Below are positions 1 to 218 of a stretch of DNA of 7,543 bases, one piece after another. Position 1 is the stretch's first letter; each line of letters opens with the position of its first letter. Source of the stretch: a virus (lineage: Duplodnaviria > Heunggongvirae > Uroviricota > Caudoviricetes); the IMG/VR virus record IMGVR_UViG_2778261182_000005. The stretch is one strand, 5' to 3'. The translations under genes were made by a program, and so were the position numbers. Below the pieces are notes generated by a model. That model was given only the letters and a program-made list of their open reading frames with translations. It was not told the origin of the DNA and searched no databases.

Positions 1-61
1 GGAATCGAACCCGCATCATCAGCTTGGAAGGCTGAGGTAATAGCCATTATACGATACCCGC
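1..61 (-). tRNA. tRNA-Gly (anticodon UCC), 5' 61 nt only; the 3' end runs off the window start
   Basis: Reverse complement of 1-61 is GCGGGTATCGTATAATGGCTATTACCTCAGCCTTCCAAGCTGATGATGCGGGTTCGATTCC. Anticodon stem TCAGC/GCTGA with loop CTTCCAA gives anticodon UCC; T-loop GGTTCGATTCC. Closely resembles E. coli glyT as recalled from memory. Confidence 0.8.
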
Positions 62-64
62 ATA

Positions 65-139
65 TGGTGCCGACTACCGGAATCGAACCTCGCACTCTCA
101 ACTTAAAGGGTTGACGCTCTTTCCTGATGAGCTAGTGGC
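65..139 (-). tRNA. tRNA-like element, probably a degenerate or pseudo-tRNA (tRNA-Thr-like 3' end, anticodon loop CCUUUAA)
   Basis: Reverse complement is GCCACTAGCTCATCAGGAAAGAGCGTCAACCCTTTAAGTTGAGAGTGCGAGGTTCGATTCCGGTAGTCGGCACCA, 75 nt, flanked by 3-nt spacers to its neighbours. It has a D-arm-like GCTC...GAGC and an anticodon stem TCAAC/GTTGA, but position 33 is C, the T-stem does not pair, and the acceptor stem has a mismatch or bulge. The 3' 24 nt match the 3' end of an E. coli thrW-type tRNA-Thr as I recall it. Confidence 0.45.
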
Positions 140-142
140 GGT

Positions 143-218
143 TGGTGGCCCTTGCTGGATTTGAACCAGCGACCTGGCGATTATGAGTCGCTCGCTCTCA
201 CCACTGAGCTAAAGGGCC
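143..218 (-). tRNA. tRNA with CAU anticodon, tRNA-Ile2 (lysidine type, ileX/ileZ-like) rather than elongator Met
   Basis: Reverse complement is GGCCCTTTAGCTCAGTGGTGAGAGCGAGCGACTCATAATCGCCAGGTCGCTGGTTCAAATCCAGCAAGGGCCACCA, 76 nt with a canonical cloverleaf and encoded CCA. Anticodon loop is ACTCATAAT. Near-identical in layout to E. coli ileX from memory. Confidence 0.85.

Follow-up and report, generated by a model that had tools for sequence, protein, structure and literature searches.

A tRNA-sized unit in a lambdoid prophage array is very probably a hybrid pseudo-tRNA formed by a 78-bp deletion

Between two recognizable tRNA genes in the late region of a lambdoid prophage lies a third unit of tRNA size that tRNA finders skip. 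The first-pass annotation of this locus had offered three readings of it, namely a decaying tRNA-Thr paralogue, a non-canonical phage tRNA or a fossil attachment (att) core left by an integration event, and the question that the locus raises is which of these, if any, the unit represents. Comparison with related prophages points to another origin: the unit is very probably a hybrid pseudo-tRNA, with the front of a tRNA-Lys gene joined to the tail of a tRNA-Thr gene by one deletion of 78 bp.

The array and its prophage setting

The stretch of DNA analysed here (the window) is the whole of the 7,543-bp draft contig NLPG01000062.1 from assembly GCA_002230665.1, and it covers the nin/late-regulatory region of a lambdoid prophage, with all features on the minus strand. 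The nin region encodes a HicA toxin (82 aa) and a HicB antitoxin (163 aa; 4351-5068), and the window continues with a DUF968 protein (2505-3632), RusA (2118-2492) and the Q antiterminator (1300-2121; Pfam Antiterm, 1.5e-49). Between Q and the tRNAs lies a gene for a 239-aa protein (341-1060), which gave no Pfam match in our scan and has a precomputed match to PF27470 (TfpB). At the other end of the window, a Hok peptide of 51 aa (5297-5452; Pfam HOK_GEF, 1e-23) and a sok RNA (5450-5620; Rfam, 101 bits) make up a hok/sok type I toxin-antitoxin locus (5297-5620). Two terminator-like hairpins with T runs are found at 1200-1266, just downstream of Q, which is where tR' follows the late promoter in lambdoid phages. 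On the related contig L141, which is described below, the array is followed by genes for holins, a lysozyme, an HNH nuclease and the terminase, so that the late region looks intact and the array sits between Q and the lysis genes.

The array itself had been described as a compact, phage-style row of three tRNA-sized units, and this is what is seen at 218..1 on the minus strand: a tRNA-Ile2(CAU) gene, a middle unit that is not a tRNA and a tRNA-Gly(UCC) gene. The first gene (tRNA-Ile2/Met(CAU), 143..218; anticodon at 185..183) is intact, scores 72.5 bits with the Rfam tRNA model and is the single unit of the array called by ARAGORN (218..143). It is identical to ileZ of 933W at 76 of 76 positions and to K-12 ileX at 68 of 76, which makes it a lysidine-type Ile2 tRNA, and the identical copy in the relatives is labelled tRNA-Ile by PGAP. 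The identities given earlier to the two outer units thus stand, but the Gly gene is incomplete, which the first-pass annotation did not mention: the window holds its first 61 nt (1..61; anticodon at 28..26; Rfam, 42.4 bits with a 3'-truncated flag), and the contig end cuts off the last 14 nt. The spacers depend on where the middle unit is taken to begin. With the unit at 139..65, as first drawn, both spacers (140-142 and 62-64) are indeed 3 nt long, whereas in the register of its parent gene (141..65) the first is 1 nt. The TAT at 62..64 is the spacer that separates Thr from Gly in intact arrays (alignment A1), being present in 31 of the 33 arrays examined.

The contig ends exactly 55 nt past the sole base that distinguishes its Gly gene from E. 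coli glyT, and this edge would be a repeat-induced break in a k = 55 assembly graph with no biological boundary behind it. The base in question, T at window position 56, is U6 of the Gly tRNA. In the complete Gly gene of the sister contig L141 (7061-7135; 65.6 bits), it forms a compensated U6-A67 pair in place of C6-G67 of glyT; L008, L023 and L024 show this variant in intact arrays, and L115 carries a U6.G67 intermediate. The compensated pair, together with this intermediate, suggests that the Gly gene of the window lineage has been kept functional.

Roughly 10 nt upstream of Ile2, a TTGCAG hexamer (256..251) and a TATTAT hexamer (233..228) are separated by 17 nt. Both hexamers are kept while the remaining upstream sequence has diverged, and their position relative to ileZ is that of the span annotated as 'pT; putative tRNA promoter' in 933W, so that 228..256 is a probable homologue of this promoter. 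A generic promoter scan did not list the site, whose -35 hexamer matches at three of six positions.

This setting is that of the ileZ-argN-argO array of the 933W type, which in Shiga-toxin and other lambdoid phages occupies the interval from Q/pR' to the stx or lysis genes. The window shares with it the upstream Q gene, an ileZ-identical first gene, an argN-family second gene and the pT-like hexamers. In contrast to the Ile2-Arg(UCG)-Arg(UCU) array of 933W, the window array is a variant of the form Ile2-Lys(UUU)-Thr(UGU)-Gly(UCC), and it has further lost Lys and Thr by the 78-bp fusion deletion. It is a deletion derivative of a known lambdoid late-region tRNA array and does not constitute a new class. 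Contigs that encode an identical 239-aa protein (L131-L135) either carry an Ile-Arg-Arg array or break before the array, and the presence of the same protein beside Ile-Arg-Arg argues that array modules are shuffled downstream of a common Ile2. A search of the literature on ileZ, argN, argO and hybrid tRNA genes returned nothing usable.

Origin and structure of the middle unit

The closest E. coli prophages and phages align to the array as two segments with 78 additional bases between them, and at the same place UPEC 26-1, IHE3034 and PhiR47_1 are annotated in their records with four tRNA genes, Ile2, Lys(UUU), Thr(UGU) and Gly(UCC), an annotation with which ARAGORN agrees. Read against this array, the middle unit falls into three segments. 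The 5' 53 nt (89..141) are identical to the argN-family tRNA-Lys(UUU) of UPEC 26-1 (L001 3200-3276) and of other prophages, and comprise the 5' strand of the acceptor stem, the D arm, the anticodon arm, the variable loop and most of the 5' strand of the T stem. The next 6 nt (83..88) read GTTCGA, a T-loop microhomology common to Lys and Thr, somewhere within which lies the deletion junction (alignment A1); with it, the first 59 nt of the unit are identical to the neighbouring tRNA-Lys(UUU) of related prophages. The 3' 18 nt (65..82) match the thrU-identical tRNA-Thr(UGU) and supply the rest of the T loop, the 3' strands of the T and acceptor stems and the terminal ACCA. Together with the shared motif, they form a 24-nt exact match to E. 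coli thrU, the remainder of which is absent from the window.

The earlier observation that the last 24 nt of the unit are a tRNA-Thr 3' end therefore holds, but its assignment to the thrW type does not: the tail matches K-12 thrU (tRNA-Thr UGU) at 24 of 24 positions, thrW at 19 and thrT at 17, which rules out a thrW-type origin. In the three-way alignment A1, the window has a gap of 78 columns that runs from the T loop of Lys to the T loop of Thr, with GTTCGA at both edges. In UPEC 26-1, the two GTTCGA motifs are likewise 78 bp apart, and scripted removal of the intervening DNA reproduced window 218..1 with one mismatch, the C to T change at position 6 of Gly. Apart from the deletion, the intact array and the window are 99.4% identical over the 340 bases compared; the former contains four working genes, whereas in the latter the second and third are fused and non-functional.

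As had been noted from the letters alone, the unit has C33 in its anticodon loop, a broken T stem (2 of 5 pairs) and a poor acceptor stem (1 of 7 or 4 of 7 pairs, depending on the register), and it is not a working tRNA. When ARAGORN was run on it, no call was made. With relaxed thresholds, Rfam RF00005 gave a local match that, at 23.2 bits, falls short of the gathering score of 29; it covers model positions 8-63 and hence the D arm, the anticodon arm and the T loop. Further matches over the tRNAs to the Plastid-ycf2, snoRNA and YrlA families, all below threshold, are known tRNA-like cross-hits and were set aside. Scored on a fixed cloverleaf for each sequence, the Lys parent forms 7 of 7 acceptor, 4 of 4 D, 5 of 5 anticodon and 4 of 5 T-stem pairs at -25.5 kcal/mol, and the Thr parent forms the same numbers of pairs at -24.8 kcal/mol. 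The fusion keeps the D stem (4/4) and the anticodon stem (5/5), both inherited from Lys, but has 1 of 7 acceptor pairs and 2 of 5 T-stem pairs, at +2.5 kcal/mol; in the register first proposed, the acceptor reaches 4 of 7 pairs, one of them G-U, at -6.8 kcal/mol. In both the acceptor and the T stem, the 5' strand comes from Lys and mismatches the 3' strand, which comes from Thr. Nor does the unit qualify as a tRNA-Thr, since its anticodon (UUU, at 107..105) and its body are those of Lys.

We considered whether the fused unit might nevertheless be a working non-canonical tRNA or tRNA-like RNA, either a bulge-tolerant tRNA or a nuclease decoy that presents a Lys(UUU)-type anticodon arm. Its D and anticodon arms are intact, its minimum free energy fold contains an acceptor-like helix of 7 bp with one bulged C (GCCACUA with UAGU-GGC) and a free ACCA, and the junction has been inherited in more than one assembly. 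With two of five T-stem pairs, however, neither the acceptor/T minihelix nor the elbow can form, and the cloverleaf energy, the silence of ARAGORN and the subthreshold Rfam score all speak against a tRNA. Compared with shuffled sequence, the fold shows no significant gain in stability (z = -1.8); free folding is in any case uninformative here, as genuine tRNAs, when unmodified, also miss the cloverleaf. Moreover, the fused form occurs only with one exact Q allele (four contigs on record, and all three shown carry the junction), and hundreds of intact arrays stand against the few fused contigs. We regard a working RNA as very unlikely, and hold it equally improbable that the fused RNA accumulates in stable, tRNA-like form and titrates anticodon-arm nucleases or tRNA-modifying enzymes; were it active, the deletion would have been retained by selection and not by drift. 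The suggestion of a non-canonical phage tRNA fits the parent Lys gene, with its C33 and argN scaffold, and fails for the fused unit, in which the acceptor and T stems are lost.

Inheritance of the junction and the remaining alternatives

Further carriers of the junction were found through the exact sequence of the Q protein of the window. The junction is present on L141, a 74.7-kb contig of the independent assembly GCA_012789555.1 that differs from the window by one mismatch in 7,121 bp, and on the Logan assembly contig L143, which is present in three runs; SRR11484484 also counts among the carriers. Over this region the carriers hardly differ, and they may represent one clone. The junction 26-mer GAGTGCGAGGTTCGATTCCGGTAGTC had no exact match in GTDB species representatives, IMG/VR or JGI metagenomes, and the fused form was not found as a one-piece match in 5,426 complete E. 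coli genomes or 50,697 INPHARED phage records. The deletion is thus a real mutation that has been passed on within one prophage lineage, and it probably arose once.

An assembly or sequencing artefact, with a four-gene array in the true genome, would be a natural suspicion for a short-read contig whose end falls within a repeat, the glyT-like Gly gene; the prophage Thr gene, being identical to chromosomal thrU, is an assembler repeat as well. Yet the shared stretch at the junction is just 6 nt long, well short of any assembler k-mer, so that an assembler cannot have made it. The same junction is carried by the independent 74.7-kb contig and by Logan unitigs of other runs, and a full 76-nt copy of thrU would have broken the contig, as the glyT-like Gly gene does, which the 24-nt remnant did not; this agrees with a deletion that the reads themselves contain. 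We consider an artefact very unlikely, slightly more so than a working RNA. The fossil att core and the slowly decaying tRNA-Thr paralogue can be given practically no weight: phages classically use tRNA 3' ends as attachment cores, and the final 24 nt of the unit are exactly thrU, but the other 53 nt are those of the neighbouring Lys gene and not of a drifted Thr, relatives hold a complete Thr gene at the same position, and the site lies between Q and the lysis genes, away from the prophage end, in a window without an integrase. Gradual decay of a Thr gene is ruled out by the same 53 nt, which a single deletion accounts for.

In the preferred reading, a single deletion fused Lys and Thr by taking out the 3' third of Lys, the 2-nt spacer and the 5' two-thirds of Thr. 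Its break points fall at corresponding places in two genes of 76-77 nt, and for that reason the product is once more tRNA-sized and cloverleaf-like. The repeats are 6 bp long, agree at 10 of 11 bases when their flanks are included and are 78 bp apart, and such repeats are a typical substrate of replication slippage or short-homology deletion. The likely route is accordingly replication slippage or another short-homology, RecA-independent deletion. Deletions between short direct repeats are well known from classical bacterial genetics, as is unequal exchange in tandem tRNA genes, which gives rise to hybrid or lost copies. The fused unit resembles these cases in that the end points fall in a short motif common to adjacent genes of similar size and the product is in register and one gene long. 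It differs in that the partners are not isoacceptors and share the T-loop motif only, which is why the hybrid is non-functional and not a working recombinant.

As a consequence, the prophage would be left without a tRNA-Lys(UUU) and a tRNA-Thr(UGU) of its own. Transcription of the array probably continues from pT and the Q-dependent late promoter, with the remnant of ~80 nt included in the transcript as an overlong spacer that separates Ile2 from Gly. Cleavage by RNase P should still be possible at the 5' end of Gly, and at the remnant the enzyme would have nothing to recognize, because the acceptor/T minihelix is absent. Ile2 would then carry a trailer of ~80 nt, and we infer that its 3' end matures by endonuclease cleavage and 3' exonucleases.

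The parent genes and the meaning of the deletion

The Lys parent belongs to the family of argN, the tRNA-Arg(UCG) gene of 933W, to which it is ~80% identical. A degenerate-pattern scan recovered 122 family members, with ~80 arrays of the form Ile2-Arg(UCG)-Arg(UCU) as against ~36-39 of the form Ile2-Lys(UUU)-Thr-Gly. The prophage tRNA-Lys(UUU) can be described as an argN-family scaffold with a switched anticodon. All 40 Lys-type copies have C33, with the anticodon loop CCUUUAA in 39 and UCUUUAA in one; the C33 of the fused unit (window position 108, loop CCUUUAA) was thus inherited from the Lys parent. The Rfam score of the Lys parent is 45 bits; it has U73 and a C1-G72 pair, and one T-stem pair is an A.C mismatch. 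In a set of 37 distinct family sequences, 96.7% of the cloverleaf cells are paired, and between the Lys and Arg types two-sided changes are found at pairs 7:67, 28:44 and 31:41 (alignment columns). This level of pairing and the compensated changes at three pairs mark the Lys parent as a tRNA whose structure is maintained, unusual though it is.

The Lys-type unit is unannotated in some records, among them L145 (320-396) of E. coli 08-00022 and phage vB_EcoM-606R7. The copy in 08-00022 carries one more D-stem mismatch (C25 to A) and a T-stem G.U pair, and is nonetheless called by ARAGORN; the gene is close to the limit of what annotation pipelines detect. On the IMG/VR contig L126, an argN copy loses similarity directly after the T loop (…GGGGTTCAAGTCCCATAAGCGCTAACT) and no tRNA follows, which may represent another rearrangement that breaks at the T loop.

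About 522 of the 5,426 complete E. coli genomes carry the intact array, recognized there by two-piece matches of 111+78 bp, and so do ~36-39 IMG/VR contigs. Its Thr gene is identical to thrU at 76 of 76 positions and its Gly gene to glyT at 75 of 75 (L001 3279-3432; window 1-88), and this identity to chromosomal genes indicates that the prophage acquired both from its host recently. The chromosomal operon has tyrU and spacers between thrU and glyT; in the prophage, TAT alone separates the two genes.

The Lys and Thr isoacceptors are reported to be the main targets of the PARIS nuclease AriB, which cleaves at U36AAUC|A41 and whose cleavage is abolished by a change at U39 (PMC12409363), and P2 OLD blocks lambda mainly through destruction of tRNA-ThrU (PMC12445682). 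The intact array supplies Lys and Thr, the isoacceptors that match these targets. The prophage Lys reads U36AAGUU41 and so lacks the AriB site, whereas the prophage Thr, being identical to that of the host, keeps the site and could help by dosage only. The Lys/Thr pair may be a lambdoid counter-defence module. A literature search that joined lambdoid phages with tRNALys and tRNAThr returned nothing relevant.

Taken alone, the result is a routine one, a lineage-specific deletion that killed two accessory prophage tRNA genes. The deletion explains why tRNA finders skip a tRNA-sized unit, and it provides a clean example of how microhomology between T loops can yield in-register hybrid pseudo-tRNAs that mimic degenerate or non-canonical tRNAs, a pattern that both annotators and scans should learn to identify. 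Should the intact array serve in counter-defence, strains with the deletion would be natural double knock-outs with which to test such a role.
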